NCBI GenBank assembly: GCA_034670305.1
Contig: JAXMNT010000006.1
Span: 64,001-128,000 of the forward strand
DNA length: 64,000 nucleotides
Source of the DNA: Deltaproteobacteria bacterium
Lineage (GTDB): Bacteria > Myxococcota_A > Polyangia > Polyangiales > Houyiibacteriaceae
Direction: 5' to 3'
Shown: positions 3,701 to 20,882 of the stretch, one piece after another
How the letters are laid out: each line of letters starts with the position of its first letter
How positions within the stretch are numbered: position 1 is the stretch's first letter
Translations under genes and position numbers: made by a program
The notes under the pieces: model-generated
What the model was told of the DNA's origin: nothing
The model's database searches: none
Seen by the model: the letters and a program-made list of their open reading frames with translations, nothing else

Positions 3701-6700
3701 CCGGGTGCGCGCCGGGGACTTCGTCGAGCGCAAACTTCCAGGCTTCGATCGCAGCGTCGGGATCCTCGCCCCGCCACTTGGCCCGACCAGCCTCACACCA
3801 CTCGAAGAACGCGGCGTCACCGGTCGAGTCAGAGGCGGCCTGTTGCCAGAGCGCGCCGGCGGCTGCTGGTTCGTTGGCCTCGAGCATCCGGACGAGCGCG
3901 CGTCGTGCCGGTGCGCCGCCCTCGTCCGCCGCCAGCTGCAAGGCGGCGCGTCGGTCGTCGCCCGCGAGTCGGGCCGCGAGTGCGAGAAGCACCCCCAGGC
4001 GCTGTTCGGGGGCCGCGCGCTCCGTCGCCGCCCGAAGGTGGGTCACGACTTCGGCGTCGTCGCCGGCCTTGGCGGCCAGGTCCAGCAAGAGGAGCGCTGT
4101 GGTGAGCGGTGCCTCGCCCCGTTCCGCGGCGGCCAGCAAGTACGCCCGCTCGTTGGATGGATCCGAGGTCGCGAGTTTGGCAGCCGCTTCGACCGCGGTG
4201 CCCTCCCCCTTGTGTTCCTCGCTCGGCGCGCTGAGCAGGGCGCCGTGTTTGCGCGTGAGGATCTCGCGGACCACTCGGATCGTGTCGAGGGTCTCGTCTG
4301 CGAGGGCCGCGTCCTTGAGGGCGGTCTGCGCGCCTTCGATGTCTTCGTTCTGTGCCCGGGCTTCGGCCAGGTCCAGCAACGCGAGCGCCCGGTTCGCGCC
4401 GCCGGTGGCTTCCGCAAGGGCGGTCAGCGCGGCGGTGCGTGCGTCCGCATCGCCCGCCCGGAGGGCCGCGAGTGCCTTCAACTTCAACCCCGCCGGTCGG
4501 GTGGCACCGTCGAGCAACGCCGTCGCTTCCGCCGGCTTCTTGGCGGCGAGCAACCAGCGCGCGGCGAGGCGGCGAAGGCCTTCCTGCAGGGAGGGCGTCT
4601 GCATCTGCGCCGATGCGGCCGAGAGCGCTTCGGCCCGGTCGACGGGATCTTCCGCCACGCGTGCCCGACCGAGGTTCGCTGCAAACCCCGCATGCCGAGC
4701 CGCCGCTTCGGTGTACGCCGTTCGGGCGCGGGCGGTCTGACCGGCCCGCTCCGCGTCTCGCGCCACGCGGGTCAACAAGGTGGAGGCGGCGACGTCGTCC
4801 TTCCAAACCTCCGCGGCCTTCTGGAGGGACACGGCGCCAGGGAGCCCGCGTCCCTGCGCACGCGCGGCTTCGTTCCACAGCAGGCCGGCCGGCACGCTGG
4901 GGTGTGCGGCCATCGCGGCGCGGCACGATCGTTCCGCGCCCTCCGCGTCGTCCATGCGCGACAGCTGGATCTCCGCGAGCAGCGTCAGCACGAGGCTCTT
5001 GTCGAGTGCGGAGAGCGGAAGGGCGGCCTCCGCTTGCAGCCGGGCCACGACCTCGTCCCAATCGCCGCGGTGCATGGCGGCGCGCCGGAGTGCGCGCAGG
5101 GCGAGCAGGTCGCGCGGGTCCGCCTCGTTGGCTTCGACGAACAGCGCGTGTGCTTCGTCGTGGCGCGCGAGCCGTTCGAAGATCTCGGCGGCGGCGACGA
5201 GGCACCGCGCTTTGCCTGTCGTGGGGCCGGACGCCGCGAGGCGCTTGAGCATCTCGCCCCGCTTGAGCAGCGTCTCGGGGTCGGTTCCGACGAACTCCAG
5301 CTTCTCTTCGCGGGGCTTGCGGTGTCGGACCGTTCGCTGCGCGGTGGCTGCACCTTGGTCTCGGGCGGCCGCCGCAGGATCCACGGCGGCCTCTGCCGCA
5401 TCGGCGTCGAACTCGAGCTCGGGCCCGTCGTCGTCTTCCTCCGCGACCTCGAGGGCTGGGGCATCGTCGCCCTCGTCGCCGAACTCGAGCGCTGGGCCGT
5501 CGTCGGATTCGCCGAACTCGAGCTCCGGGCCGTCGTCGTCGGGCTCGCCGAACTCGAGCTCCGGGCCGTCGTCGTCGGGCTCGCCGAACTCGAGCTCCGG
5601 GCCGTCGTCGTCGGGCTCGCCGAACTCGAGCTCCGGGCCGTCGTCGGGCTCGCCGAACTCGATCTCCGGGCCGTCGTCTTCTGGTTGGCCGACCGCGATC
5701 TCGGGCTCGTCGTCCAGTGCGGGCGGGTCCACGCGAAGCATGGGCGGGACCGGAATCTCTGTAGATATCGGCTCGAGCGATTCCCCCTCTGCGAGGGAGA
5801 CCTCCATCGTCGGCTCGTCCTGGCGAGGCGGCTTGGAGGACGTGCCGACGCGCGGCGCTGCGTCCGCCTCTGCCACGGCGTCTTCTGCGTCCTTGTCGAG
5901 GTCCCCGAAGAGAAGGTCGAGTTCTTCGTCCGGCTCGGCGAACGGGTCGAGGAGATCGTCCTCGCCGCTGGCGCTCGGACCCAGTTGGCTGGGCGTTGGC
6001 AACGAGAACGCACCCTTGGCTTGCGGACGTGGGAGCTCCGCTTGCGGAAGGCTGGGCGCGGGCAGGGCAGGCTGCGGCAGCCGGGGCGGCTTCGGTCGCG
6101 GCAACCCAGGCTTGGCCAGGGGCGGCGGCGCGGGCGGACGGGCGATGACGGGCGGTGGAGCGACCGGGGCGGCGACGGGCGGAGGCGCGACGGCCGGCGG
6201 TGCGACGGCCGGGGGCGCGACGGGCGCAGGCGCGATTCTCGTCGACTCGTCGTCGTCTTCGTCCTCGCCGAAGAGACCATCCAGATCCAATTCGACCGCA
6301 TCCCGGTAGTCGTCTGGGACTTTGCTTGCGCGCGGCGCGTCGCCTTCGTCTCCGGTCGTGCGGAGCTCCTGCAGCGAGGCGATGAGGTCTTCGGGCACCG
6401 CTGCGATGGCGGTGGCTTCGTCGCTGTCGTCGTCGCCAAACGAAGGGAATGCCTCGCGTACCTTGGCGGGGCTTGGCGGTGTGATCTTCGGCGCCTTCGG
6501 CTGCGGGATCTGCGGGACGGGCTTCTTCCGCGCTTCCAATCCGGGATCGGGCTGGTAGAGCGGACCTCGGCCGGCAGGGCGCGGTTTGGGCTTCGGCGCG
6601 GAGGGCTCCGGTGCAGGCGGTACGGTTTGCCGGAGCGGCGCGGCTTTCGCCTGCGCGGCGTCCTCGAAATCTTTCTCCCACGCGTCCAGCGCGTCGTCGA

Positions 6701-6740
6701 GATCCAGGTCGAGCTCGAAGTCGTCGTCTTCGGTACTCAT
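705..6740 (-). CDS. Giant TPR/alpha-solenoid protein (~2011 aa) with an acidic, Pro-rich N-terminus
   Basis: Start MSTEDDDF at 6740 overlaps the upstream stop (ATGA). Many TPR-like helix pairs (e.g. AREAFRRALALEPNRIGTLRKLAEL). Resembles myxobacterial AgmK-type TPR proteins. Confidence 0.8.
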   Translation of the reverse strand: MSTEDDDFELDLDLDDALDAWEKDFEDAAQAKAAPLRQTVPPAPEPSAPKPKPRPAGRGPLYQPDPGLEARKKPVPQIPQPKAPKITPPSPAKVREAFPSFGDDDSDEATAIAAVPEDLIASLQELRTTGDEGDAPRASKVPDDYRDAVELDLDGLFGEDEDDDESTRIAPAPVAPPAVAPPAVAPPPVAAPVAPPPVIARPPAPPPLAKPGLPRPKPPRLPQPALPAPSLPQAELPRPQAKGAFSLPTPSQLGPSASGEDDLLDPFAEPDEELDLLFGDLDKDAEDAVAEADAAPRVGTSSKPPRQDEPTMEVSLAEGESLEPISTEIPVPPMLRVDPPALDDEPEIAVGQPEDDGPEIEFGEPDDGPELEFGEPDDDGPELEFGEPDDDGPELEFGEPDDDGPELEFGESDDGPALEFGDEGDDAPALEVAEEDDDGPELEFDADAAEAAVDPAAAARDQGAATAQRTVRHRKPREEKLEFVGTDPETLLKRGEMLKRLAASGPTTGKARCLVAAAEIFERLARHDEAHALFVEANEADPRDLLALRALRRAAMHRGDWDEVVARLQAEAALPLSALDKSLVLTLLAEIQLSRMDDAEGAERSCRAAMAAHPSVPAGLLWNEAARAQGRGLPGAVSLQKAAEVWKDDVAASTLLTRVARDAERAGQTARARTAYTEAAARHAGFAANLGRARVAEDPVDRAEALSAASAQMQTPSLQEGLRRLAARWLLAAKKPAEATALLDGATRPAGLKLKALAALRAGDADARTAALTALAEATGGANRALALLDLAEARAQNEDIEGAQTALKDAALADETLDTIRVVREILTRKHGALLSAPSEEHKGEGTAVEAAAKLATSDPSNERAYLLAAAERGEAPLTTALLLLDLAAKAGDDAEVVTHLRAATERAAPEQRLGVLLALAARLAGDDRRAALQLAADEGGAPARRALVRMLEANEPAAAGALWQQAASDSTGDAAFFEWCEAGRAKWRGEDPDAAIEAWKFALDEVPGAHPASWALERAYLERGDAEGQRVLLEQQIDAASGPKQSALLAVQLAFAKGGDGAALQQAHDHLEGGGSHDPVLESMLSVASGTDPLALATLYELRAQDSSDPGARRIAVWRAGAAYESAGDHAAAANLYRTLFAEHPDPITSAALERAELASNQHARVGERRFVAVKEASDPAQKLAALEDLAALDLYERGDMSSAVLTLQSILEDAPGHLPTLRVLERHFMTDNRDDELARICGRLMEHLDRRGVAIAARLRARLALLRADAPATVGDATLREAFDRLTGDAWPAGETWVARRLLAVTEDPQTRATAWAAVIDGVAASDEEQAAFVLRAAEAVRAASDAGEAAAMLGPAVAALPRHPLLAEAQADALLADGEHAQAADAFELAAAASQLDTHRVACFYAAGRAWEEAGDVEHAMSAYEKASEIDVTYADIFERARILLERGGHHGRLADLTQRRLDAGGDASTLVELHETHAALALAAGDRNGAREAFRRALALEPNRIGTLRKLAELSLEEQDYRAAAETLIRIARLRQDREELRWVFFTLGDLYDRHMPDPRRAEAAFSRVLKLLPEDLETMDRLAELYIRENNLEKAVPMLQRLYDIEIDPDERRRHRLRIARAHEASGDARTAERVLDETRRVDPTDLVVLRAMADLYERQNAPSALAMHLGRALSDFRRGVRDAPSDVMAWTGLVDVLDWKGRPDAARAAASASVAYGVQDVGLSARVGALGEIPGAGAGAFDADLRDMLAPAPLGRAIFEVFRLSQEALDKAAPFDAKAWRAQKYRTEPLRSEAQRVGAFFGATDVQLLVTSAAPRLCLPVGSSPVTLLIGDDLASGTDERQRAFLFARAISIAQSHLTVAMRTGPELLAPLLAALHRVYDPHIQIGAHDPKLVDDLTKKLTKGISRRSRDALGLVLLEMVNAPGYDPTRLGVAAAELGDRLALLALGSVPAGVEALLQLAGLGNESADRVVLLDKVPEARELVHFAISDAHFDARQRAGADRN
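5478..5676. repeat. Intragenic 36-bp tandem repeat encoding (DDDGPELEFGEP)n
   Basis: Unit GCCGAACTCGAGCTCCGGGCCGTCGTCGTCGGGCTC exact at 5511, 5547 and 5583, with shortened or degenerate flanking copies. Confidence 0.9.
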
Positions 6741-9700
6741 GTACCCAGGCTCCGTCGAAGTTCGATCATCTGTGGAGAGATCCAGAAGTGAATGAGGTCG
6801 TTGGCATCCGCGGTGGCGCGGACGACCGCAAGCGATGGGTGTTCGTCGATGAGCGCCGTCACGATCGAGGTCAGGTCGCCGCCGACGAGCGCGCCCGCGC
6901 GCATGGCCCCTCGTCGCACGCCCACGCAGAACGCTTCGACGTCGCGGCCGCCATCCGGCACCTGCGCCGCCAGCGTCGCCGCGGCCTTTCGGGTCTTGCG
7001 CGGCATCGCTTTGTGGAGGCGTCGCGTCCAGTCGACGAGCCCTGCTCGGTCCATGCCCGCCGCGAGTGGGTGATCCGACGCCGCCGCCACCGCATGCAGC
7101 ATGGTCGCGCCATCGCTCGGCATGCGGCGCACGAGCGCGCTGAACCCGAGTCGAAGCGCACAGGCTTGCTGGGCCACGAGGAACCGGTGCACGGGATGCA
7201 GTGGCGACCGCACGCCGTCCCCGATGACCCACGCGTGTCGCTTCTTGCCCGGCATCGCGAGCAGTCGACCCGGGTCGTCTCCACCCACGAAGGTGTCCAT
7301 CTCAGGCAGGGCGAACAGACGCGACAGCACACCGATTTCATCGCGCACCGGATGCGGACCCGAACCGACCAGTTCTCGGCGTCCCACCCCGAGCGCCGTC
7401 GGGGTCAAATCGATGAGTTCGCACAGTACGGGATCGAGCAGGCGGGCGAGCTCCGCGAGCGGGCCGACGGCTTCGGGCATCATCACGCGCAGACGGGCGT
7501 CGTCGATCGACTCGATCGCCGCCCGCGTCATGATGCCGGTCTCTTCTTCGGCCGCGCGGGACTCTTCGGGCGTTGCTGCGCCAATGGCTTGCAGGGCTTG
7601 CAGCACCGTCTGCTCGAACACCCGGTCGCCCCGCCAGTCCGCCACATCGCGCAACCCGCGGAGCAGATCCGCAGCCAATCCGTCGCGTTGGATCATCGCG
7701 CGGATGGTCCCCTCGACCTCGTCGGCCAGCGCCTCGCGCGACGACGGGTCCGGCAGCAGTGCGGCAAGCGCCCGCGCGGCTTCGAGATCGGTCGGCGTGG
7801 ACTTCAGTGCACTTCGGTACGCCGCCTGGGCCGATGTGTGGTCCCCCGCCGCGACGTGAAGTTCTGCGGCACGCCGGGCATGGGCCGCCTTGTCCGCGCC
7901 CTCCGCGCCCGCGGCCGCCTTGGTGAGTGCCGCCGCGGCCGCTGCGGTGTTCCCCGTGCGCTCGGCCAGCCCGGCCATGCGCACGAAGAGATCGACCGTG
8001 CCGTATCCGAGGCCATCCACCGCAGCCAGCTCGACGAGCGCGCCGGCGGGATCGTCGAGTTTGTGCTCGAGGAAGTCGGCCGCGCCGAGACGCGAGATGC
8101 GTTTCTGTTTCGCGGGCACGTCCGCCTTGGCGATGAGGCGCAGTCCGTCGACCGCAGGCGCCCAGCTGCCGCGGGACACGTTGATCTCCACCGCGAGCGC
8201 CAGGCCGCCGACGTGCTGTTCGTCGAGCAGCACCAGGTTCTCGATCGCCTCGAGTGCTTCGTCGAGCTCGCCACGGCTGCGGTGCAGCCGCGCCAGTTCG
8301 TAGAAGAGCCGCTCCAGACCTTCGTCGGTCGCCTCGATCCGCCGCTTCACGATTCGGACGAGCGCTTCGGCGTCGGCCCGCTCGGCCAGAAGATCGTGCA
8401 ACCGATGGAACGCGTTCGGGCGTCCCGGGTTCTCGTCGAAGACCGCGGCGAGTCGCGGTTCGGCCCCCGCCGGATCGTCGAGGTGATCGAGCAGCACCGC
8501 CGCCGCTTCTTCTTGCAGACCGTGCGCCGCATCTCCATCGAGGTGGGCGAGCAGCTGGTCGCACGCGCGCACCACGTCTTCCCAGGCGCCGGCTGCGCGG
8601 GCCGCTGTGCGCAGCGCTTCCCACCCCGCCAGGTCCCAGGGATCGGCTTCGACGACGGCCCGGTTGATTTCGAGCGCTTGCTGACGACGCGCCGCGGAGA
8701 GCGCACGGCCTGCTGCCGCGCGGAGGACCGGCTGAGTGGATGGGCTCGCGTGTTCCAGGACCCCGAGCAGCGAGGCCGCGCGCGCGTCCGGATCGTCGCC
8801 CGGTTCCAGCGTCTCTTCGATCCCCGCCCGCGCCGAAGCGGTGTCCGGCGCACGGGCACCAAGGTCTTGCGCCAGGAGGAACACGTCGTCGGCTGCGTCG
8901 TTGCCTTCGACGACGAGTTTCGTGCGCAGGCCGTGGAGGAAGATGTCCGCGGACGCGACCTTGTCGCTCGTCGCGTCCGCCAGTCGCAACCAGACCTCTC
9001 CGCGCAACGTGCGGTCGCCGTCGGTGGTCAGCGCCAGGGCGGCCAGCATGGCCCAGACGTCGTCCTTGACCGGTTCGCCTTCCGCGACTTCGTCGGGCGC
9101 GAGTTCGCGGATCGCGTGTTCCACCGCCGCGAGGTCCAGCAGGTCGACTTCGGCCGTTTGGCCATGTTCCCGCCGCAACTGGATGCGGTCCGCACCCTCG
9201 GCGACCGCCAGCAATTTCTCGAGTCCGATGAGCCGCACGGCGGGCTCGGCCCCGTCTTCAGGGAGGGTGCTCAGCGCGAGCGCGGCTTCGACGCCGACGT
9301 GGGATTCGAGACACGACTGCAACGGCGACTCGGCGAGCGCCCCCTTGCCGAGCAGCGCGTAGTGTTCGCCCATCTCGAGCGTGGCGATGCGCGTCTCGCC
9401 AAGTGCGAGCTCTCGTGCCGAGAGTCCCTCCTGGGCCCGCAGCATCAACTCGTCGTCGTCGTGGGTCCGCGCCAGCCGCTCCAGTGCACGCAGTGGAGAC
9501 GGCGAATCGGGCGCTTGATCGGCGGCTTGCTCGTAGGTCTCTTTGGCCGTGTCGACGTCGTTGGCGGCTTCGGCTGCGGCACCCGCGAGCAGCAGCTCGA
9601 CGACCGCCGCGCGTGTGCCGCCGTGCGCCTCCGCCGCTTCGCGGAGCAACTTCACCACCGCGGCCGAGTCGCCCCGCGCGCGGTAGAGCATCTCGAGCAG

Positions 9701-11845
9701 CGCCACCGCGTAGGCATGTCCCGGCACCCGTTCGAGGGCTTGCTCCAGGGTGCTCACGGCGTCGTCCGTGGATCCAGCCCGTGCGAGCGAGCGGGCTGCG
9801 GCGCACAGATGGGCAGCGGTCAGGTCGTCTTCTTCGGCGCGTCGCGCGAGCGCGAGGTGGGCCTTCGCGACAAGCGCGTCGTCTCCGCCCGCCGCACCCA
9901 CGAGGCGTGCTTCGTCGGGCGCCCACGCCCGCACCGCGTCCACCCCGAGCAGCGCGCCGAGGGTGGCCGCGCGCTCGCCCGCAGGTCCGAGCCCGAGTTG
10001 TTCGAAGATCCAAGTCGAACGCTCGGCCGGTTCGAGGTCGTGCGCGAGCAACTGAGTCAGCGCTTCGCTCGCATCGGCCTCTCGACCGGCGCGCAGCATG
10101 GCGTTGCACCACGCGCGCAGGATCGGTGCCGGTCGAGGGGCGCGCTGTACGGCCTTCGCGAACAGGCTGTGCGCGCGATCCATCTCTCCGAGCGAGGCGG
10201 CGATCTCCGCGCCCCGCCACGCCGCCAGACTGCGATCCTCGTCTGTCCCGAGATCGGCGCGGGCTTCGAGCGCGTCGATCCAACCGGTGGACGCCCCGGT
10301 GGCAAGCCACCACGAATCGAGCGTCGCCTCGGCGACCACCGAGTCCGGGGCGAGTTGCAGTGCTCGGCCGGCCAGGGCCAGCGCCTCGGCTTCGTGTCCT
10401 CCGGCGGCCGCCGCTTGGGCTGCGTAGTAGAGCAGCACCGCGTCGGTGGACGACCCGGCCGCAGTTGCGACAACGGCGGCCGGGGAGGGCGATCCCGTTT
10501 CGGTGGCCGCGCCGACTTCGAGTTCCGGGGTTTCCGCCGCACCGGCTTCGGTGTCGGTCGCGTCCGGGGCGTCCGGGTCGGCCGACCCGACCAAGGCGGC
10601 CGGGGGCAGCAGGTCGGCCAGCGGGTCCGCTTCGACCGCCGCTCCGAACTCGATGTCGAGACCGTCGTCGTCCTGCGAGGCCTGGCTCTCGGCCGACGCA
10701 GGCTCGGCAGGAGTCGCTTGGTCCGCGACTGCTTCGGAGGGCGCCTGTGCGGCGGCCTGGAACAGTTCGACGGCGCGCGCCACCGTTTCGCCGTCGCCGG
10801 CCCGGAAAGCGGCTTCGACGTGGAGCAAACGGAGGAGCGGATCGTCGGGCACCAGCGCGGCGGCGCGTCCGAGCAGCGACACGCCGCGGGGCGCGTCGTC
10901 CAGACGTTGCAGCGCAATGGTGGCCGCCTCCAAGAAGTACGCGCCCGCTTTGCCAGCCGCGCGGCGCTGATCGGTGAACCGGTCCACGCTGAACGCGCCC
11001 GATTCGCCGCCTCCCTGACCCCGTGCCGCAGCCGCCGCCAGATCGCCGAGTCCTTCCAAAGCGGTGACGAGGCCATCGAACCGTTCGTGCCGTCGGCCGA
11101 TGCGCTCCATCGCTTCGAAGACCCGAAACGACACGGTCTCGGAGGCGAGGGCTTGCTCGAGGATCCCAAACGCTTCGTCGACTTGGCCTTCACCACCTTC
11201 CGAGAGGTGTTCGGCGAGGTCGATCTGCAAGAGGGCCCGCCACACCGGATGGGTGGTCGAGGCGACCCGGCTGCGCATCGCCTGGGTGATGAGTTCGGTG
11301 TCGTTCGTACGTCGGGCGGCCCGCTCCAGAAAGAGCGCCGCGGCGCCCCCTCCGGGTCCATCGGTGTCTTCGACCGTCAACGCTTCCGCGAGCCGATGAC
11401 TCGCTTTGGCTCCATCCCGCTCCCGATCCTCGATGAGTGCGGCGAGGTCGGCGGCGGCGGAGGCGGCTTCGTCGGGACGGCGCGCCGCAGACTGCTCGGC
11501 GTCGTACAAGCGGGCGAGGTTCTTGAATGAACGGCGTCGCTCGAAGATCCGAATGAGATCGTAGAGGGGCGGCCGGAACCCGGGCGCGAGGTTGTAGGCG
11601 TTGAGGTAGGCCTTCACCGCGCCTGCGGCGTCGAGGGCCCGTTCGGCCAAATGCCCGATCTGCCAGCTCAGGACCGCCTTGGTGTGCCGGTCTTCCTCGG
11701 CGTCCAGTCGATCGCGGAGAATTGCGATGTGCTCATCGAGGTTTCCGCCCCCGGACGGAGGCCGAGAGGGCCGGGGGGGATCGAGAGGTGCGGACCCGGA
11801 TGGAGATGCCCCGGGTGGAGCGGGAATGGACGGGGGTTTCGCCAT
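6737..11845 (-). CDS. Giant TPR/alpha-solenoid protein (1702 aa)
   Basis: Long Ala/Leu/Glu-rich ORF with TPR-like repeats (GAVKAYLNAYNLAP, AQAAYRSALKSTP). The C-terminal domain resembles that of 705-6740. Confidence 0.8.
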   Translation of the reverse strand: MAKPPSIPAPPGASPSGSAPLDPPRPSRPPSGGGNLDEHIAILRDRLDAEEDRHTKAVLSWQIGHLAERALDAAGAVKAYLNAYNLAPGFRPPLYDLIRIFERRRSFKNLARLYDAEQSAARRPDEAASAAADLAALIEDRERDGAKASHRLAEALTVEDTDGPGGGAAALFLERAARRTNDTELITQAMRSRVASTTHPVWRALLQIDLAEHLSEGGEGQVDEAFGILEQALASETVSFRVFEAMERIGRRHERFDGLVTALEGLGDLAAAAARGQGGGESGAFSVDRFTDQRRAAGKAGAYFLEAATIALQRLDDAPRGVSLLGRAAALVPDDPLLRLLHVEAAFRAGDGETVARAVELFQAAAQAPSEAVADQATPAEPASAESQASQDDDGLDIEFGAAVEADPLADLLPPAALVGSADPDAPDATDTEAGAAETPELEVGAATETGSPSPAAVVATAAGSSTDAVLLYYAAQAAAAGGHEAEALALAGRALQLAPDSVVAEATLDSWWLATGASTGWIDALEARADLGTDEDRSLAAWRGAEIAASLGEMDRAHSLFAKAVQRAPRPAPILRAWCNAMLRAGREADASEALTQLLAHDLEPAERSTWIFEQLGLGPAGERAATLGALLGVDAVRAWAPDEARLVGAAGGDDALVAKAHLALARRAEEDDLTAAHLCAAARSLARAGSTDDAVSTLEQALERVPGHAYAVALLEMLYRARGDSAAVVKLLREAAEAHGGTRAAVVELLLAGAAAEAANDVDTAKETYEQAADQAPDSPSPLRALERLARTHDDDELMLRAQEGLSARELALGETRIATLEMGEHYALLGKGALAESPLQSCLESHVGVEAALALSTLPEDGAEPAVRLIGLEKLLAVAEGADRIQLRREHGQTAEVDLLDLAAVEHAIRELAPDEVAEGEPVKDDVWAMLAALALTTDGDRTLRGEVWLRLADATSDKVASADIFLHGLRTKLVVEGNDAADDVFLLAQDLGARAPDTASARAGIEETLEPGDDPDARAASLLGVLEHASPSTQPVLRAAAGRALSAARRQQALEINRAVVEADPWDLAGWEALRTAARAAGAWEDVVRACDQLLAHLDGDAAHGLQEEAAAVLLDHLDDPAGAEPRLAAVFDENPGRPNAFHRLHDLLAERADAEALVRIVKRRIEATDEGLERLFYELARLHRSRGELDEALEAIENLVLLDEQHVGGLALAVEINVSRGSWAPAVDGLRLIAKADVPAKQKRISRLGAADFLEHKLDDPAGALVELAAVDGLGYGTVDLFVRMAGLAERTGNTAAAAAALTKAAAGAEGADKAAHARRAAELHVAAGDHTSAQAAYRSALKSTPTDLEAARALAALLPDPSSREALADEVEGTIRAMIQRDGLAADLLRGLRDVADWRGDRVFEQTVLQALQAIGAATPEESRAAEEETGIMTRAAIESIDDARLRVMMPEAVGPLAELARLLDPVLCELIDLTPTALGVGRRELVGSGPHPVRDEIGVLSRLFALPEMDTFVGGDDPGRLLAMPGKKRHAWVIGDGVRSPLHPVHRFLVAQQACALRLGFSALVRRMPSDGATMLHAVAAASDHPLAAGMDRAGLVDWTRRLHKAMPRKTRKAAATLAAQVPDGGRDVEAFCVGVRRGAMRAGALVGGDLTSIVTALIDEHPSLAVVRATADANDLIHFWISPQMIELRRSLGT

Positions 11846-12002: not shown

Positions 12003-13556
12003 CTACTGCAGCGCGGTCGTGGCGGCTTCGACGGATGCCCGAAGTGCGCCGTTCTTCAGGAGATCCTCACAAGCCGAGATGTCGACGTGCAATGTGCGGT
12101 CGCCTTCGAGGGTCGGAACCGTGCGCCGGATGGTCTGGAGCGCGGCGCGCACGCCCACGCCGCCCTGCAGTGGCTTGCGCAAGTCGAGCCCCTGAGCCGC
12201 GACCATCGCCTCGATCGCCAGCACGATCCGCACGTGGCCGACGATGCGTTCGAGTTTGCGGGCCGAGATGCTGCCCATCGAGACGTGGTCCTCTTTGCCG
12301 GCGGAGCTTGGGATCGAATCCGTGCTGGCCGGATGACACAGTCCCTTGTTCTCGCTCACCAGCGCCGCCGCGGTCACCTGGGCCATCATGAACCCCGAAT
12401 CCAGCCCGGAGCGGGTGCCCAGAAACGGCGGAAGCCCCGAACTCATCGCCGGGTTCACGAGCTGTTCGATCCGCCGTTCGGCGATGTTGGCCAGCTCGGC
12501 GCACGCCATGGCGGCGGTGTCGAGCGCGATGGCGAGCGGTTGACCGTGGAAGTTGCCGCCGCTGATGACGTCCGCGCCGGCTTCGCTGTCGTTCACGAAG
12601 ATGAGCGGGTTGTCGGTGGCCGCGACCATCTCGCGTTCGAGCACTGTGCGCGCAAACGTGAGCGCGTCGCGGCTCGCACCATGAACTTGGGGCATGCAGC
12701 GCAAGGAGTAGGGGTCTTGCACCTTCCGACAGTCGCGGTGGCCCTCCATGATGTCGGAGCCCGCGAGGATCGCTCGGAGGTTGTTTGCGCTCGCCGCCTG
12801 CCCTGGATGCGGCCGCATCTGCTGGATGCGAGGATCGAACGGCCGCGCCGATCCCTCGAGCGCGTCGAGGGACATCGCACCCACGATGTCGGCCAGCGTG
12901 CACAGGCGCTCCGCTTCGAGCACCGCCAGGCCGCCGACCCCGAGCATGAGCTGGGTGCCGTTGATGAGCGCTAGGCCTTCTTTCGCCTGCAGCGCGAGCG
13001 GTTCGAGTCCGAGCTGCCGCAGCACGTCGCCGCCCGGTTGCCGGACGCCCTTGTAGAACGCTTCCCCTTCGCCGATCAGCACCAGCGCGAGGTGCGCGAG
13101 CGGCGCGAGGTCGCCGGAGGCGCCGACGGAGCCCTGCGCAGGAATCACGGGGACCGCATCCGCATCGATCAGCTGCACGAGCCGTTCGATCACCAACGGA
13201 CGCACGCCGCTGCACCCGAGCGCCAGGACCTGCGCCCGCAGCGCCATCATCGCCCGCGCGGACTGGGTCGAGAGCGCGGGGCCCACCCCACACGCGTGGC
13301 TGCGCAGCAGGTTGTGTTGAAGCGTCCGGATCTCCTTGGCGTCGATGCGCGTCTCCGCCAGCGCCCCGAAACCGGTGTTGACCCCGTAGACGTTGGGCGC
13401 GTCGTCGCCGGCATCCGCGAGCCGCTCGACGAACGCATGCGCCGCCTCGACGTTGGACCGGGCCCCCTCACCGAAGACAAGCCGCGTCGTGCCGTTGGCG
13501 ATGCGTTCGAGCTCCTCGAGGGACCAGGCGCTGCCGAGTTCGATTTCACGAATCAT
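12003..13556 (-). CDS. hutH: Histidine ammonia-lyase
   Basis: VYGVNTGFG, LLRSHACG, MIO-forming GSVGASGDLAPLAH, KEGLALINGT, QDPYSLRC, GGNFHGQP and EDHVSMG motifs. Start MIREIEL overlaps the SDR stop (ATGA). Confidence 0.92.
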   Translation of the reverse strand: MIREIELGSAWSLEELERIANGTTRLVFGEGARSNVEAAHAFVERLADAGDDAPNVYGVNTGFGALAETRIDAKEIRTLQHNLLRSHACGVGPALSTQSARAMMALRAQVLALGCSGVRPLVIERLVQLIDADAVPVIPAQGSVGASGDLAPLAHLALVLIGEGEAFYKGVRQPGGDVLRQLGLEPLALQAKEGLALINGTQLMLGVGGLAVLEAERLCTLADIVGAMSLDALEGSARPFDPRIQQMRPHPGQAASANNLRAILAGSDIMEGHRDCRKVQDPYSLRCMPQVHGASRDALTFARTVLEREMVAATDNPLIFVNDSEAGADVISGGNFHGQPLAIALDTAAMACAELANIAERRIEQLVNPAMSSGLPPFLGTRSGLDSGFMMAQVTAAALVSENKGLCHPASTDSIPSSAGKEDHVSMGSISARKLERIVGHVRIVLAIEAMVAAQGLDLRKPLQGGVGVRAALQTIRRTVPTLEGDRTLHVDISACEDLLKNGALRASVEAATTALQ

Positions 13557-14305
13557 GTGGTTGTCCAGCCGCCGTCCATCACGAGTGTCTGGCCGGTCAC
13601 GTACGCCGCGTCGTCGCTCGCGAGGAACACGGCACCGCCGGCGATGTCGCTCGGCTGTCCGATTCGTTTGAGCGTCGTCCGGTCGACGACCATCTGTTTG
13701 ATGGTCGGGTTCGCGACGAGAGCCTGCGCAAAACGTGTCTCGATGAGGCCCGGGGCGATCGCGTTCACGCGAATGCCGGACGGCCCGAGTTCGGCACCGA
13801 GCGTCTGGGTCATGGAGATCACCGCGGCTTTGGTCATGCCGTAGGCGCCCTGCAGTGGCGCGGCCATCTGTCCGAGCACGCTGGCGACGTTGATGATCGA
13901 GCCGGGGCTCTTGCGCGCGAGCAAGTGCTCCGCGACCGCCTTGGCGCACGCGAAGTACCCCTTCACGTTCACTTCGAACGTCTTGTCCCACGCCGCCCAC
14001 TCGCAGTTGAGCATCGGTCCGAAGTAGGGGTTGGTCGCGGCGTTGTTGACCAGGATGTCGACCTGCCCGAACTGTTTCACCGCGCCTTCGACCAATGCAG
14101 TCACCTGCTCGGGTTTGCCGGTGTGGCAGGCGATCGGAAACGCGTGATCACCGATCGATTCCGCCACCGGGACGAGGCCGTCGATCTTGCGCGATGCGAG
14201 CACCACGCGCGCGCCTTCTTCGGCCAATGCGCGGGCGATGGCCTCGCCGATTCCGCGGCTCGCGCCCGTGACGATCGCAACTTTGCCTTCGAGTCTGCTT
14301 CCCAT
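13553..14305 (-). CDS. Short-chain dehydrogenase/reductase (classical SDR)
   Basis: TGASRGIG, LVNNAA, catalytic YGMTK, IRVNAIAPG and TGQTLVMDGG motifs. Confidence 0.92.
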   Translation of the reverse strand: MGSRLEGKVAIVTGASRGIGEAIARALAEEGARVVLASRKIDGLVPVAESIGDHAFPIACHTGKPEQVTALVEGAVKQFGQVDILVNNAATNPYFGPMLNCEWAAWDKTFEVNVKGYFACAKAVAEHLLARKSPGSIINVASVLGQMAAPLQGAYGMTKAAVISMTQTLGAELGPSGIRVNAIAPGLIETRFAQALVANPTIKQMVVDRTTLKRIGQPSDIAGGAVFLASDDAAYVTGQTLVMDGGWTTT

Positions 14306-16445: not shown

Positions 16446-16787
16446 ATGGAACTGCATCACCTGGCGCTGAGGACCCGCGACGTCGAGCGGCTCGTCGCGT
16501 TCTACCGCCGGGTGTTCGATCTCTTGGTCGTGCGCGAAGGCCCGCACGGCTGCGGCCAAAGCGTGTGGCTACAGCTCGAGCATGGGGTGCTGATGATCGA
16601 ACCCGCAGCCGAAGACGAACCGTCGATCGATCCGCAGAGCCTCGAGCTCGTCGCGTTTCGGGTCGACCTCGCGCGGCGCGCGGAGATCGAAGCGCGGGTG
16701 TCGGTCGAAGCCCGCACCGAACACACGATCTACTTCCGAGATCCCGACGGCCGCCGCCTCGCCGTGTCCACCCACCCGCTCGACTGA
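16446..16787 (+). CDS. VOC/glyoxalase family protein
   Basis: [18 protein letters not shown] at the N-terminus and [11 protein letters not shown] near the C-terminus. Confidence 0.85.
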
Positions 16788-16810
16788 GCACGGGCGCGGC
16801 GACGCAAGGC

Positions 16811-16956
16811 CGGCATCGGCATCGGCATCGGCATCGGCGTCGGCTTCGGCGTCGGCTTCGGCGTCGGCTTCGCCTTCGGCTTCGGCTTCGGCATCGGCAT
16901 CGGCATCGGCTCCGGCATCGGCATCGGCTTCGCCTTCGGCTTCGCCCTTCGGCTTC
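16811..16956. repeat. Degenerate hexamer tract (DTCGGC)n between convergent genes
   Basis: About 24 units of ATCGGC/GTCGGC/TTCGGC. Confidence 0.95.
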
Positions 16957-16971
16957 ACGTGTTTGCTCGGA

Positions 16972-18351
16972 TCACCCGCCAGCGGCCACTTGGCGCCGCG
17001 CCACTGCAACCCCAGAGCGTGCCCCGCGCCAACGTTTGTCGGCCGCTCGGGCCCCGTGCGAGCGGAGCGACACCGGAAGCCCGGACGCGTCTTCGACGAA
17101 GCGCAGGAGCGCTGCTTCGCTCCCGACCGAAACCGTCCCGACCCCCACCTCGTTCAGGTGCGCCGTCAGCGCACTCTGGTGGTCCAAGTCTTCGGGACCG
17201 CCCAGCGGAAGTCGGTTCCGCAGCAGTCCCTCGTACCGGTCGACCGCACGCCACGACGCGTCGACGCGATCGAGGTGTGTCACCGCCAGCGCGTCCATGG
17301 GCGCGCAGTCGAGCGCGTAGCGGAGCAACACTCCGTCGAGCCAGCCGCGCCGGAACCCGCCCTGCCACCCCGTGTCGCCGTTGTGCGGTTCCGGTGTGCG
17401 TGCGTCCAGCGCACGGCACTCGGAGGGAAACGGCCCCTCTCCGTGGCGCGTCAGGTAGCTGCGCACCACCCCGAGCCGCACCGCCTCTCGGCCCGTCCCA
17501 TCCAGCATCTCGAGCGGGCGGGCGGCGGTGCAGGTGCTCCAGGTCGTGTGCGGATGGAAGCCGCGCCACTCGTCGAGCAGCACCCCCTGCGCGCCTTCGA
17601 ACAGGATCGGGTCGGGGCCCCGTGCGATCGCCTCGAAGTAGCCGCCGTCGACCAGCGCCGGTCGGTGCATGAGCGGCGCCAGCGCTTCCACGAACCGCTC
17701 GATCATCTCTTCGTCTTCGAGCAGGGCGAGTTCCACCGCGCTGAGCGGATCGGACGCATCGAGACCCAAGCCCGCGGCGATCGCCCGGGCCCGTTCGCGG
17801 ATGACGCGAAGCTTCCGGGGAAGGGCGGCCGGTCTCCACAGATCGGCCGCATGGAGGACCGCCGCGGGCGCTTCGAGCGACGACCGCACCGTCTCTCCGA
17901 CGCCGACTCCGACGGTGCCGTGGACCGGGACGCCCGCATGTGCGCGGGCGCGCTCCCGAAGCCGCACGAGCGCGCGTTCGTAGGGTGTGGTGACGAGCGC
18001 TCGGCCGTCGATGGTCCACCGTCCGAGCGCGTCGTGCACCCCGAGCCGCGCAAGCCGCGCCGCCTCTTCGAGGAGCGCAAGCGGCTCGAGAACGAAGTGC
18101 GGTCCGTGGTGGGTTCGCACGCTCGCAAGGAAGCTGGCCGCGCCGAACTGCGCGAAGCAGTGGTGACGCCCATCGCCGTCCACGACGTTGTGCCCGGCCT
18201 GTGCGCCGCCGTTCGCGCGCACGACGTGGATGGGCTGCAGGCCGCCCTCGGCATGGGCCAAGATGTCCCGCGCCAAGAAGTCGACGGTGGTGCCCTTGCC
18301 GCAGTCGCCGAACCCCAGGTCGACGACGATCCATGTTGCGCGTTCCGACAT
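16972..18351 (-). CDS. Adenylosuccinate synthetase-like protein (divergent PurA paralog)
   Basis: GFGDCGKG, RANGGAQAGHNV, EGAQGVLLD, TRHGEGPFPSE, RGWLD and VTHLD motifs. Strong SD (AGGAGG) upstream. Confidence 0.85.
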   Translation of the reverse strand: MSERATWIVVDLGFGDCGKGTTVDFLARDILAHAEGGLQPIHVVRANGGAQAGHNVVDGDGRHHCFAQFGAASFLASVRTHHGPHFVLEPLALLEEAARLARLGVHDALGRWTIDGRALVTTPYERALVRLRERARAHAGVPVHGTVGVGVGETVRSSLEAPAAVLHAADLWRPAALPRKLRVIRERARAIAAGLGLDASDPLSAVELALLEDEEMIERFVEALAPLMHRPALVDGGYFEAIARGPDPILFEGAQGVLLDEWRGFHPHTTWSTCTAARPLEMLDGTGREAVRLGVVRSYLTRHGEGPFPSECRALDARTPEPHNGDTGWQGGFRRGWLDGVLLRYALDCAPMDALAVTHLDRVDASWRAVDRYEGLLRNRLPLGGPEDLDHQSALTAHLNEVGVGTVSVGSEAALLRFVEDASGLPVSLRSHGARAADKRWRGARSGVAVARRQVAAGG

Positions 18352-18422
18352 CGTTCTCCTCCTCGAACGCGTCCGCCGCGGACGGTCCAGGCCTTTGGGA
18401 CCGGCGGCGGACGGTTCTCCGA

Positions 18423-19379
18423 CTAGCGGGTGTGGCCGCTCGCCATCGCGGCGGGCGGGAAGGGCGCGCGTTCGACCGCGCGTTCACCAAGCGTGTCCGC
18501 GAACGGACCGATGGCGGTGACGATCGCGCCGACCCGTTCGCGTTTCATGCCGGTCGCAGTGAGCCGTTCGGCCACCTCGTCCACATTCGCGAGCGCGCCT
18601 TCGCACAGACCCACGAGCGCGGCGGAGGCGGCGCAGGTGTCGGCGGCGCTCCCGAGCACAATCGCGTGTTCACCGAGCAGCTCGCGCCACTGGGCACCAC
18701 ACCGTCCCGCGCGGCGTTCGTCCGGAATGAGGAAGAACGGTTCGAAGCTGACCTGCAGCTCCGCGATGACGTCTTCGATCGGCATGTCGTCGCCCAGCGC
18801 GTCGCCGATGAGGCCGTCCACTTGAGACCGGGCGATGCGCGGGTAGGGGTGCTCGTCGCCGGTCATGAAGAAGTAGCCACGCTTCTTGCGCTTCTCCCAA
18901 CAGTCCATCGCCGTGTGCCGCGCCGCGAAGTACATGCCGAGCTCGTACGACTCCTGGAAGGTGCCGCCCCCGCCGCCCTCGAGAAAACTCCAGGTCAGCC
19001 ACTGGTCCATCAGCTCCGCTTCGGACTCGAACTGACCGACCTGCAGCGGCGCCCGATCGCTGTTCGCATCGCCGACGGCCATGAAGAGCACCTGCGGGCT
19101 CGCGATGCCGCAATCGAGCAGGAGCTTCATGAAGGTCGGAAGCTCCTTGCGCGCCAACAGATCCGGGATGTTGCCCATGGAGCCGGTGACATCGAGCGCG
19201 AACACGAGCCCGAGGCTGTTCGGATGTTCGTCGCTGTCGCGGCACTCCCGCACCCGCACCCCTTTGGGGTTCATCAGCGGATGGCAGGAGCGCTGCTTGA
19301 AGACCTCTTCGCGCGCGGTGTGCGCCCGGCCCGTCGTGAGCTTGTGGTGCGCATCAAAACTGTAACTTCCATATCCCAT
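18423..19379 (-). CDS. vWA-like (MIDAS) domain protein
   Basis: LVFALDVTGSMG (DxTxS), AVGDA, GQFES, GGGG..ESYEL and FMTGDE motifs. GAGG SD before MGYGSYS. Confidence 0.8.
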   Translation of the reverse strand: MGYGSYSFDAHHKLTTGRAHTAREEVFKQRSCHPLMNPKGVRVRECRDSDEHPNSLGLVFALDVTGSMGNIPDLLARKELPTFMKLLLDCGIASPQVLFMAVGDANSDRAPLQVGQFESEAELMDQWLTWSFLEGGGGGTFQESYELGMYFAARHTAMDCWEKRKKRGYFFMTGDEHPYPRIARSQVDGLIGDALGDDMPIEDVIAELQVSFEPFFLIPDERRAGRCGAQWRELLGEHAIVLGSAADTCAASAALVGLCEGALANVDEVAERLTATGMKRERVGAIVTAIGPFADTLGERAVERAPFPPAAMASGHTR

Positions 19380-19416
19380 GGCAACCTCGCTTTCGTTCTC
19401 TCGGTGGTGGGGTTCC

Positions 19417-20448
19417 CTACGCGTGCTTGCGTGATGCAGGCAGAACGAAAGGAACGAACTTGGGTGGTCCCCAGACCGCCTCGGCGGCCTTCGAGACTTG
19501 GTCTTTGAGGGCCCATGCGTCGTCGGTCGGCGGGCGGTCTGCGCAGGTCTCGAGCAGCTTCCGGACCGGCGCCGGAGCGCGCGCGCCATGGGTGAGCCAG
19601 AGGAGGGTGCGAGCCAGCATCGCCAGATCGAGCGCGGGCTCGGGCGGCTTGGTCGCGGCGGTGGGGTAGAGCGCGGCGAAGCGCGTGCTCCGGGCCGGCA
19701 AGAGGGAGCGGGTGCGACCAAGCCGCCAGGTCGTCGCGCCCCATCCGAGCAGCACCACCGCGTGCGCGTCGGGGCGCACGAGCAGATGCGGTGGCAGCAC
19801 CGTGCCGTGCACGACGCCCGCACGGTGCAGCCAGCCCAGCATGTCGAGCACCCGCTTCCACATCCAGACCGCGTGGCGGGGATCCACCCCGCGCGGGAAC
19901 GCATTTCGGATGTCACAGGCCGTGGCTTCGAACCCAGCGCGGAATCGAAACGCCGTCGCCAGCGGACCGCCCGACCGGACCTTGCCGGGCGTGCGCGATC
20001 CCGCCGCGTCGTGCAGCCGGAGCGCCCCGTGGGCGATGGGTTCTGGGAGCAGTCGTCGGAAGAACTCGGCGCCTTCGGTCTCGGATGCGCGGAGCTCGCG
20101 GACCACCCGGACTTCCCGCGCGAGCAGGTCGGCGTCCGCTTCCGCGCGCAACACCTTCAAAGCCACCCGCTGGGTCAGCCGCGTGTCTCGGTGGGCGAGA
20201 AACACATCGCTCGAGTCGCCGCGGCCGAGCCGACCGTCGATCACGTAGACGTGTTTGCCGAGACCGCAGCGCGGTTTGCCGGCGTCTTCTTTGCGGCCCG
20301 CCCAGGGCGGCACGACCACAGGGCGCAGCCGCCAGGCGTCCGGGACGTCCACGACCACGTGGTCACAGAAGGCGCAGACGAGCGCCGTGGCGCGGGTCGG
20401 AGGGAGGGGCGCGGTGCACTTGGGACAGGTGAGGGCGGTGAGGGCCAT
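19417..20448 (-). CDS. Protein-kinase-fold protein (pseudokinase) with an N-terminal Zn ribbon
   Basis: CPKC...CAFC, then LGRGDSSDVF, VALKV and LLAREV. HRD is replaced by HGT and DFG by LGW. Confidence 0.75.
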   Translation of the reverse strand: MALTALTCPKCTAPLPPTRATALVCAFCDHVVVDVPDAWRLRPVVVPPWAGRKEDAGKPRCGLGKHVYVIDGRLGRGDSSDVFLAHRDTRLTQRVALKVLRAEADADLLAREVRVVRELRASETEGAEFFRRLLPEPIAHGALRLHDAAGSRTPGKVRSGGPLATAFRFRAGFEATACDIRNAFPRGVDPRHAVWMWKRVLDMLGWLHRAGVVHGTVLPPHLLVRPDAHAVVLLGWGATTWRLGRTRSLLPARSTRFAALYPTAATKPPEPALDLAMLARTLLWLTHGARAPAPVRKLLETCADRPPTDDAWALKDQVSKAAEAVWGPPKFVPFVLPASRKHA

Positions 20449-20451
20449 GGC

Positions 20452-20472
20452 TTCGTGTGACAACTACACTAA
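20452..20472. promoter_or_regulatory. 21-bp operator-like box 1 (GT-N7-AC) overlapping the -10 element
   Basis: Minus strand reads TTAGTGT-AGTTGTC-ACACGAA. Confidence 0.6.
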
Positions 20473-20493
20473 GCAGCGGCGCGGGGCCGTCAA
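20466..20493 (-). promoter_or_regulatory. Sigma70-type promoter of the pseudokinase-vWA-PurA-like operon
   Basis: TTGACG-16 nt-TAGTGT on the minus strand. Confidence 0.55.
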
Positions 20494-20509
20494 GACGGCT
20501 GGGGCGAAT

Positions 20510-20530
20510 TAAGTGTCTTTTGGACACGAA
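20510..20530. promoter_or_regulatory. 21-bp operator-like box 2 (GT-N7-AC palindrome)
   Basis: Plus strand reads TAAGTGT-CTTTTGG-ACACGAA, with core palindrome GTGTC-N5-GACAC. Shares AGTGT and ACACGAA with box 1. Confidence 0.6.
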
Positions 20531-20573
20531 GTCGGAGGGCCCTGCAATACAGGGTGGAAACTGCGGATCTCAG

Positions 20574-20882
20574 GCCGAAGCCGAAGCCGATGCCGACGCC
20601 GACGCCGACGCCGATGCCGATGCCGAAGCCGATGCCGACGCCGATGCCGAAGCCGACGCCGACGCCGAAGCCGAAGCCGAAGCCGAAGCCGAAGCCGACG
20701 CCGAATCCGAATCCGAAGCCGACGCCGAATCCGAAGCCGAAGCCGACGCCGAAGCCGAAGCCGAAGCCGACGCCGAAGCCGATGCCGATGCCGGCTGTGT
20801 CCGACTCCGACTCCGAAGGAGAGGATGTGCGGTTCCCGTGCCCGTGCCCGTGCCCGTGCCCGTGCCCGTGCCCGTGGCCGTG
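20574..20882. repeat. Compound hexamer tract: (GCCGAH)n, then (TCCGAC)n, then (CCCGTG)7
   Basis: Main tract 20574-20793, second tract 20835-20876, directly 3' of the protease gene. Confidence 0.95.

Follow-up and report, generated by a model that had tools for sequence, protein, structure and literature searches.

A PurA-like paralog with a rewritten aspartate loop in a three-gene cassette with candidate NrtR operators

Relation to PurA and PurZ

Adenylosuccinate synthetase (PurA; EC 6.3.4.4) stands alone, and the phage enzyme PurZ (2-aminoadenylosuccinate synthetase) is a further member of the PurA superfamily. The window analyzed here, a stretch of 64,000 nucleotides from a Deltaproteobacteria bacterium (assembly GCA_034670305.1, contig JAXMNT010000006.1, positions 64,001 to 128,000), carries on its minus strand a PurA-like gene at 16972..18351, which we call gene C. 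It shares with PurA the fold, the P-loop, the Asp/Lys/His/Gln set, and the guanine-specific Asp; it differs in having Trp-Gln-Gly-x in place of the Thr-Thr-Gly-Arg aspartate loop and THLD in place of TKLD, and in lying in a cassette with a von Willebrand factor A (vWA) protein (gene B) and a probable pseudokinase (gene A). Its family, like PurZ, occurs in phages, but three PurZ references (from Vibrio phage VP5, Salmonella phage PMBT28, and Arthrobacter phage KingBob) retain a Thr-Thr/Arg-Arg-type donor loop, unlike gene C, and the neighbors of PurZ-type phage genes encode DNA polymerase and dATP or nucleotide pyrophosphohydrolases, not vWA or kinase-like proteins. In our preferred reading, for and against which the case stands about evenly, gene C would encode a catalytically competent, GTP-using ligase of a separate mobile clade, acting as the enzyme of a candidate NrtR-controlled cassette.

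The open reading frame (ORF) of gene C runs from an ATG to a stop codon and encodes 459 amino acids; GC at its third codon positions is 0.84, and the window as a whole has 68% GC. The protein matches Pfam PF00709 (Adenylsucc_synt) with 165.3 bits (E = 2.5e-48) over profile positions 1-330 of 416, and the nearest solved structures are those of canonical PurA (6bs7, 3hid, and 1ade; E ~1e-20). It scores 124.1 against a cut-off of 402 for NF002223 and 93.2 against 395.55 for TIGR00184, both of them NCBIfam equivalog models of PurA, and 30.4 against 300 for the NCBIfam PurZ model NF038379. The genome (7.9 Mb in 105 contigs) has a canonical PurA of 582 bits on another contig, and in all five of the other carrier genomes tested a canonical PurA (577-617 bits) occurs along with the paralog (184-213 bits). 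An earlier note on this stretch, made from the sequence alone, had proposed that the protein is neither PurA nor PurZ; the missed cut-offs, the separate clade described below, and the canonical PurA elsewhere in the genome all bear this out.

We aligned gene C with the canonical PurA of its own genome (L001, 1486-2754), which reads GDEGKGK, NAGH, GTTKRGIGP, EGAQG, GATTGRPRRCGWLD, and TKLD, and with the PurZ references, of which those of VP5 and PMBT28 are annotated as 2-aminooxy adenylosuccinate synthetase or adenylosuccinate synthetase. The motifs listed in the earlier note are all present in the translation of gene C (GDCGKG, AGH, GTVGVGVG, EGAQG, TRHGEGPFPSE, EPHNGDTGWQGGFRRGWLD, and THLD). 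The P-loop keeps the catalytic Asp for which PurZ was said to have Ser, as is the case in all three references (GSTGKG in VP5 and PMBT28, GSEAKG in KingBob). The His of AGH, the EGAQG segment, and the TR.G.GPFP.E motif were rightly described as kept, and the GW.D motif of PurA is kept as well. The alignment with the genome's own PurA also agrees that the aspartate-binding loop is replaced, that TKLD has become THLD, and that GTTGRGIG has become GTVGVGVG.

A search of 5.8 billion proteins returned 4,950 matches to gene C at E <= 0.001 among 8,000 candidates scored. The best 120 of these are 44-56% identical to gene C, and every named one is labeled adenylosuccinate synthetase or synthase. Searching 1.84 billion cluster representatives (50% identity level) exhaustively, we found 1,927 that match at E <= 1e-30. 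We counted residue conservation over 121 sequences (gene C and its best 120 matches), referring to PurA positions by the E. coli residue numbers, mapped onto gene C via the alignments. The phosphotransfer set is nearly invariant: the equivalents of Asp13 (118 sequences), Lys16 (119), His41 (121), and Gln224 (120) are conserved, and gene C has all four. The guanine-specific Asp of (T)HLD is present in 120 of the 121.

The substrate-binding positions have changed throughout the family. In the aspartate loop, Thr300-Thr301 of PurA are replaced by Trp (118/121) and Gln (121/121), the position of Arg303 is variable (R in 30, A in 29, and G in 28), and Arg131 has become Val in 94. Part of the clamp that holds the 5'-phosphate of inosine monophosphate (IMP) has changed too: Asn38 is replaced by Gln in all 121 sequences and Thr129 by Cys in 105 (gene C, with Val, is one of 121), and the family alignments have no conserved Arg at the position of Arg143, a residue that comes from the other subunit in PurA. 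The kept part of the clamp comprises the Thr128 position (T or S in all 121) and Thr239 (120/121). Among the residues characteristic of the family, in gene C numbering, Gln51, His64, Gln330, and Asn324 (the Asn of the EPHN motif) occur in 121 of 121 and Trp329 in 118; His64, Glu153, His303, and Asn324 are new invariant residues of the family. The three segments that bear family-specific residues match those loops that in PurA close over the substrates. As the alignment has it, the replacements are a trait of the family and not drift or decay, since the rewritten positions are as conserved as the catalytic ones.

Given the loss of the Thr-Thr/Arg aspartate loop, it is a reasonable inference that the donor is an amine other than aspartate, as the earlier note had it. 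The same note held that the purine O6 can still be phosphorylated. For IMP this is not secured, because the acceptor pocket is changed as well (Gln for Asn38, Cys or Val for Thr129, and no conserved Arg at the Arg143 position). The reading is also incomplete in that it takes in neither the three-gene cassette nor the NrtR-type operators that tie this cassette to NAD/ADP-ribose turnover. Overall, what the note had observed is confirmed, and its interpretation is partly supported.

A tree of 39 sequences (27 paralogs, among them those of the window and of mycobacteriophage Alice, seven canonical PurA, and five phage PurZ-type proteins; IQ-TREE quick search, unrooted, with Shimodaira-Hasegawa-like approximate likelihood ratio test [SH-aLRT] support) places the 27 paralogs on one side of a branch (SH-aLRT 93), the seven canonical PurA on another (95), and four of the five PurZ-type phage proteins on a third (99). 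Gene C thus lies outside canonical PurA in the phylogeny that had been proposed as a check. The fifth PurZ-type protein, from Rhizobium phage RHph_Y65, falls with the paralogs at the end of a long branch, a placement that may be a long-branch effect according to a warning from the tool; it has the gene C family signatures NGGAQAGH, RHGSCG, and.QG..R. Within the paralog clade the order departs from that of the phyla (Fibrobacteria fall beside Variovorax, and Planctomycetota beside Thermoanaerobaculia), which suggests that the family has spread horizontally. We also noted a divergent PurA-like branch (L101, 5885-7063; L102, 5963-7165; and L098, 901-2151) on Agrobacterium and Acetobacter plasmids and in Rhizobium phage RHph_Y65, whose members keep GDEGKG, have T-C-x-D for THLD, and have in common NGGAQAGH, RHGSCG, and a.QG..R donor loop.

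Because the defining aspartate site is absent, the label of adenylosuccinate synthetase is probably wrong for the relatives of gene C, and an intact catalytic core combined with conserved new pockets means that gene C should probably catalyze a reaction not yet described.

Cassette partners and their distribution

A pattern scan covering 185,579 species, each by a single genome, gave at least 599 matching stretches. Of these, 576 proved to be relatives, from which we took the best 80 loci. Using the window ORFs as queries over these loci, we find a cassette in the order A (kinase-like), B (vWA), and C (PurA-like) on one strand, with B upstream of C in 74 loci and A present in 67. Carriers include Myxococcota, Burkholderiales, Chloroflexota, Verrucomicrobiota, Actinomycetota, Planctomycetota, and others. 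The cassette of the window fits the family signatures (NGGAQAGH, HG[TS]CG.G.GE, and EPHN...WQG.FR in C; the MG... N-terminus and DVTGSMG in B), save that its gene C reads HGTVG where the signature has HGTCG. Of the six loci that lack B, four end at a contig end (L009, L014, L034, and L060) and two truly lack both A and B (L005 and L045). Thirteen loci lack A, eight of them at contig ends; three (L077, L079, and L081) have B and no detectable A.

Gene B (18423..19379, minus strand) encodes a protein of 318 amino acids, its start set by alignment with 50 orthologs, and is the most conserved of the three genes, with up to 71% identity across phyla. It has no match in Pfam, NCBIfam, or PADLOC. An AlphaFold model built from 51 sequences (predicted local distance difference test [pLDDT] 91) has a vWA fold, and its Foldseek matches (E ~1e-5) are to an integrin beta I-like domain, collagen VI, and the pilus adhesin SpaC. 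Both DVTGSMG and a G-D-E further along are invariant, which fits a metal-ion-dependent adhesion site (MIDAS). The N-terminus is unusually constant: Met1 and Gly2 are found in 51 of 51 sequences, in the pattern MG[YS][GS]x[YW]S. The prediction of a complex of C with B (score 0.20, mark 0.32) speaks neither for nor against one.

Gene A (19417..20448, minus strand) encodes a Zn ribbon (CPxC...CxxC) followed by a protein-kinase fold; the ORF reaches a TTG at 20463, and the ATG at 20448 fits the homologs. The match to Pkinase is weak (E = 0.005), and PADLOC kinase models match with E-values down to 4e-11 (PD-T4-6 group defense kinases). The structural model (pLDDT 88) matches the folds of VRK1, PknB, and CK1. 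Across the family the beta3 Lys and the alphaC Glu are nearly invariant, and the Asp residues of HRD and DFG are not conserved. In the window the catalytic loop reads HGT and the DFG site LGW, from which gene A would probably be a pseudokinase. The versions of gene A from Actinomycetota, Chloroflexota, and phage Alice have no Zn ribbon and start instead with a short stretch that closes with HPD, the tripeptide typical of J-domains.

The pairing of a vWA/MIDAS protein with a kinase-fold protein in a set of three genes recalls the TerY-P triad of the vWA protein TerY, a Ser/Thr kinase, and a PP2C phosphatase, a candidate defense system. The window differs from that triad in lacking a PP2C in the neighborhood, in having a PurA-like ligase gene in third place, and in a kinase-like protein whose catalytic Asp is not conserved.

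Neighbor families were defined by all-against-all BLAST of 699 greedily chosen non-overlapping ORFs out of 5,174, and the most frequent after the cassette genes, a histidine kinase, is found in 13 of the 80 loci and looks unrelated. For a Pfam scan of the neighbors, 18 near-duplicate loci (mostly from Variovorax and Actinomadura) were set aside, which left 62 non-redundant ones; of their 153 ORFs lying no more than 1.3 kb from the cassette, 124 were scanned here, without those above ~700 amino acids and a few that an earlier Pfam scan had covered. The flanks of the 80 loci consist mostly of housekeeping or varied genes and are not defense islands. GATase_4 class-II glutamine amidotransferase genes adjoin the cassette in L043 (4015-4800) and L060 (1305-2267). 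An Hsp70-family gene follows the PurA-like gene in three of the 80 loci (L042, 9339-11108; L047; and L054), and two RlaP-family nucleotidyltransferase genes lie downstream of C in L049 (9351-11139). Natural-product PurA homologs exist, and we considered a biosynthetic cluster; we dropped this reading because the neighbors are not biosynthetic and A and B are the only conserved partners. Literature searches on the PurA-like, vWA/kinase, phage, and NrtR aspects returned no description of the gene C family or of the cassette, and the available text of PMC7824862, PMC7159879, and PMC13464706 does not mention adenylosuccinate or PurA.

Copies of the family are also found on mobile elements. Among phages, gene C has 224 matching records, and 201 of these belong to Mycobacterium phages; the matches span 80% of its length with ~40% identity. 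The annotation of these copies reads "PurA-like adenylosuccinate synthetase", or PurZ in RefSeq. In mycobacteriophage Alice the genes follow in the order gp246 (a kinase, 30% identical to A), gp247 (40% to B), gp248 (90 amino acids), and gp249 (43% to C, with the gene C family signatures). The module of Bixzunavirus (cluster C1) thus has the same order as the window, and shares with it EPHN..WQG.FR, THLD, and MGSG.W; it differs by an insert of ~250 amino acids in B, by the 90-amino-acid gene between B and C, and by the HPD-type N-terminus of A. Its gp246 is annotated "serine/threonine kinase" and its gp249 by the family label only. The insert in Alice gp247 (L083, 2945-4729) is intein-like, starting with a Cys after ...KGY and ending ...SSN before a Cys, and sits directly before the invariant F-x-x-G-D-E strand; the N-terminus of gp247 follows MG[YS][GS]x[YW]S. 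Gene B matches 21 plasmid records, and the three examined (from Rhodococcus, Agrobacterium vitis, and Acetobacter persici) all keep the cassette order, annotated as hypothetical, hypothetical, and "adenylosuccinate synthetase". Megaplasmid copies of the cassette adjoin an AbiEii toxin gene or the VgrG gene of a type VI secretion system.

NrtR-type operators and NAD genes

Most NrtR motifs are 21-bp palindromes with a GT-N7-AC core, according to the available text of Rodionov et al. (2008; PMC2330246). Two such candidate operators precede gene A in the window, neither assigned to a strand: operator 1 at 20510..20530 (TTCGTGTCCAAAAGACACTTA), matching TTAGTGT-N7-ACACTAA at 12 of 14 positions, and operator 2 at 20452..20472 (TTAGTGTAGTTGTCACACGAA), matching at 13 of 14 and ending 4 nt upstream of the gene A start codon (ATG). 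The 7.9-Mb genome contains four sites with at most two mismatches to this motif, and none for a control pattern. Two are those before gene A; a third lies 19 bp upstream of an operon for the salvage of nicotinamide adenine dinucleotide (NAD), and the fourth is at the start of a Nuc_deoxyri_tr2-family gene (L120, 5053-5553). The NAD-salvage operon (L119; contig 1, 275500-287500) encodes a NAPRTase/NAMPT-like protein, a Prs-like protein, NadE, NrtR, and a possible nicotinamidase of the isochorismatase family; its nrtR, near 285 kb, is the only NrtR-type gene of the genome. From the shared sites the cassette appears to belong, in this genome, to a candidate NrtR regulon. The likeness to described NrtR regulons lies in these palindromes, which stand upstream of the cassette as they do before the genome's own NAD-salvage operon; the difference is that A, B, and C all lack homology to the known enzymes of NAD biosynthesis or salvage. 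The adjacent Prs-like and NAMPT-like genes resemble the prs-nadV operons in the available text of PMC2330246, and the nrtX-nrtY loci of the same authors, from Streptomyces, Frankia, Proteus mirabilis, and Hahella chejuensis, might overlap with the cassette.

The motif is also enriched before gene A elsewhere. The 81 loci (the 80 and the window; 1.14 Mb) contain 26 matches at 12 or more of 14 positions, and 17 of them fall between -300 and +30 of the gene A start, a region that makes up 2% of the sequence. A reversed pattern gave no match, and twenty shuffled palindromes gave 0-3 each, of which 0-1 lay upstream of A. Counting the window, a box precedes A in 14 of the 68 loci that have A, from Myxococcota, Chloroflexota, Gammaproteobacteria, and others; in L079 and L081, which lack A, the box lies just before B.

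In seven of the 80 loci a gene of NrtR type (Nudix and winged-helix) adjoins the cassette (L041, L043, L044, L051, L053, L055, and L062), and an nrtR also lies beside the cassette on the Agrobacterium plasmid. Other NAD genes occur in these neighborhoods: L051 has genes for NadE and an NMNAT-Nudix fusion immediately upstream of the cassette, L055 has one for NadE, and L044 has one for PnuC along with one for an AAA_28 protein. The M. smegmatis NrtR palindrome (GTTTTCGA-N7-TCGAAAAC), for which the available text of PMC6800001 gives gel-shift evidence, matches the Alice locus once, with one mismatch (L083, 2589-2611), inside gp246 and ~330 bp before gp247; the chance expectation is 0.01 (two of 200 shuffles matched).

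A shorter palindrome, GTGTC-N5-GACAC, was set aside in favor of the 21-bp motif: It has 11 sites in the genome, just one other site has an AT-rich spacer and this one is within a long ORF, and the 15-nt core was not found near nrtR in the genome. A sigma-70 promoter scan of positions 16800-20600 returned no sites, and the sequencing runs listed, under five holders, include none recorded as RNA.

Possible functions and flanking features

On the preferred reading, in which gene C is a competent ligase of an NrtR-controlled cassette, GTP would be bound through the P-loop and the guanine-specific Asp, and the retained Asp/Lys/His/Gln set would transfer a phosphate to a carbonyl or lactam-type oxygen on a purine-like nucleotide. 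That phosphate would then give way to a nitrogen nucleophile, presumably not aspartate, since the carboxylate-binding Thr-Thr/Arg loop now reads Trp-Gln-Gly-x-Phe. The 5'-phosphate clamp is incomplete and lacks, among other residues, the Arg that comes from the other subunit in PurA, so the acceptor would probably bear something other than a plain 5'-monophosphate, perhaps a group of ADP-ribose or dinucleotide type. A and B could serve as regulatory or scaffolding partners, and the cassette would be de-repressed via NrtR when ADP-ribose, the product of NAD+ cleavage, accumulates. A more specific version, which we regard as speculative and improbable, is a further, as yet undescribed route for NAD+ rescue in bacteria and large phages. 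In it, ADP-ribose released by NADases would lift NrtR, and gene C would use GTP to phosphorylate an oxygen on an ADP-ribose-derived or hypoxanthine-dinucleotide substrate. A nitrogen nucleophile such as nicotinamide or ammonia would take the place of the phosphate, so that NAD+ or the adenine half of it is rebuilt, and the vWA protein and pseudokinase would act as a gate.

Several observations weigh against the preferred reading. The chemistry of gene C is read wholly from its residues, and its C-terminal third is strongly diverged, as seen from the end of the PF00709 match at profile position 330. The NrtR link may not be general: 54 of the 68 loci with A have no box matching at 12 or more of 14 positions, 73 of the 80 have no adjacent nrtR, and all Variovorax loci have neither. 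Such absence is uninformative, however, as NrtR motifs differ between lineages. In the window the flanks hold no NAD gene; they encode a trypsin-like protease, an alpha/beta hydrolase, and an aromatic amino-acid lyase. Loci L005 and L045, with ample flanking sequence, show that C can occur on its own. Finally, the window copy could be less active than its relatives, because gene C departs from the consensus at three well-conserved positions (Val for Cys147, found in one of 121; Ala for Pro434, in two of 121; and Gly for Arg/Ala at 332) and gene A has HGT instead of HGD.

Among the alternatives, the cassette might be a conflict system, used by bacteria against phages and by phages in counter-defense, with gene C as an effector that would make or destroy a nucleotide signal or a toxic nucleotide analog, on the model of the TerY-P triad. 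This would suit the patchy, scattered distribution and a tree that departs from the species tree, the AbiEii and VgrG neighbors of the megaplasmid copies, the 201 Mycobacterium phage records, and the match of gene A to the PD-T4-6 group kinases, and the link to NrtR would fit immunity that depletes NAD. On the other hand, B and C have no PADLOC match at E-values up to 0.1, there is no PP2C phosphatase, and the 80 flanks described above do not look like defense islands. We consider this reading unlikely as it stands; it overlaps with the preferred one more than it excludes it.

A direct AMP synthase would aminate IMP or a close 6-oxopurine nucleotide with ammonia at the expense of GTP, without PurB, and so supply adenylates for the resynthesis of NAD. 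The kept purine-activating residues agree with this if only the carboxylate-binding loop is taken as lost, and the operators common to the cassette and the NAD-salvage genes, the GATase_4 genes beside the cassette in L043 and L060, and the glutamine-dependent NadE in L051 and L055 point the same way. The IMP 5'-phosphate clamp is altered too, however (Asn38 to Gln in 121/121, Thr129 to Cys in 105/121, and no conserved Arg143 equivalent), amidotransferase neighbors occur in just two of ~62 non-redundant loci, and the constant vWA and kinase-like partners are left unexplained; we hold an AMP synthase to be rather improbable.

Gene A already looks dead, and with its substrate loops rewritten and its C-terminal third diverged, gene C might likewise be a non-catalytic GTP switch, that is, a regulatory GTP-binding subunit alongside the vWA protein and the pseudokinase. 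Pseudoenzymes usually lose their chemical residues, and those of gene C are nearly invariant (general-base Asp 118/121, His 121/121, and Gln 120/121), which makes such a switch quite improbable. The invariant Met1 and Gly2 of B (51/51, with the N-terminal pattern also in Alice gp247) raise the thought of a protein-directed ligase, in which the free N-terminal glycine of B would be the donor and a purine nucleotide would become tethered to B. A donor loop that has lost its carboxylate ligands and gained aromatic residues would suit this. But this case is circumstantial, a conserved N-terminus has many other explanations, and C occurs without B in L005 and L045; we find the idea very doubtful. 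Least credible of all is an ordinary second adenylosuccinate synthetase, as the database labels of the named relatives and the PF00709 match would have it, given that the equivalog cut-offs are missed three-fold, the aspartate ligands are absent, the clade is separate, and a canonical PurA lies alongside in the genomes tested.

The family of gene C is a widespread and probably misannotated branch of the PurA superfamily, lodged in an undescribed three-gene cassette with a candidate tie, through the operators, to the turnover of NAD and ADP-ribose, a central battleground between phages and bacterial immunity. Knowledge of the substrate would bring a new reaction into this superfamily, set right a large amount of annotation, and possibly reveal a route for coping with NAD depletion.

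On the 3' side of gene C, an ORF of 146 amino acids (16569-17009, minus strand) overlaps its 3' end by 38 nt. It has no family match and no counterpart in the 80 related loci, and may not be a gene. Further features of the window lie on either side of the cassette. Between the gene for the trypsin-like protease and the NrtR-type boxes are two hexanucleotide tandem arrays, GCCGAA repeated 36.7 times (20574-20793) and CCCGTG repeated eight times (20835-20882). The aromatic amino-acid lyase gene (12003-14000; 665 amino acids) has a Pfam match from residue 160 only, and its start, like those of the TPR-repeat ORFs that it adjoins, is uncertain. As listed, these TPR-repeat ORFs (705-7232, 2,175 amino acids, and 6737-11845, 1,702 amino acids) overlap by ~500 nt.

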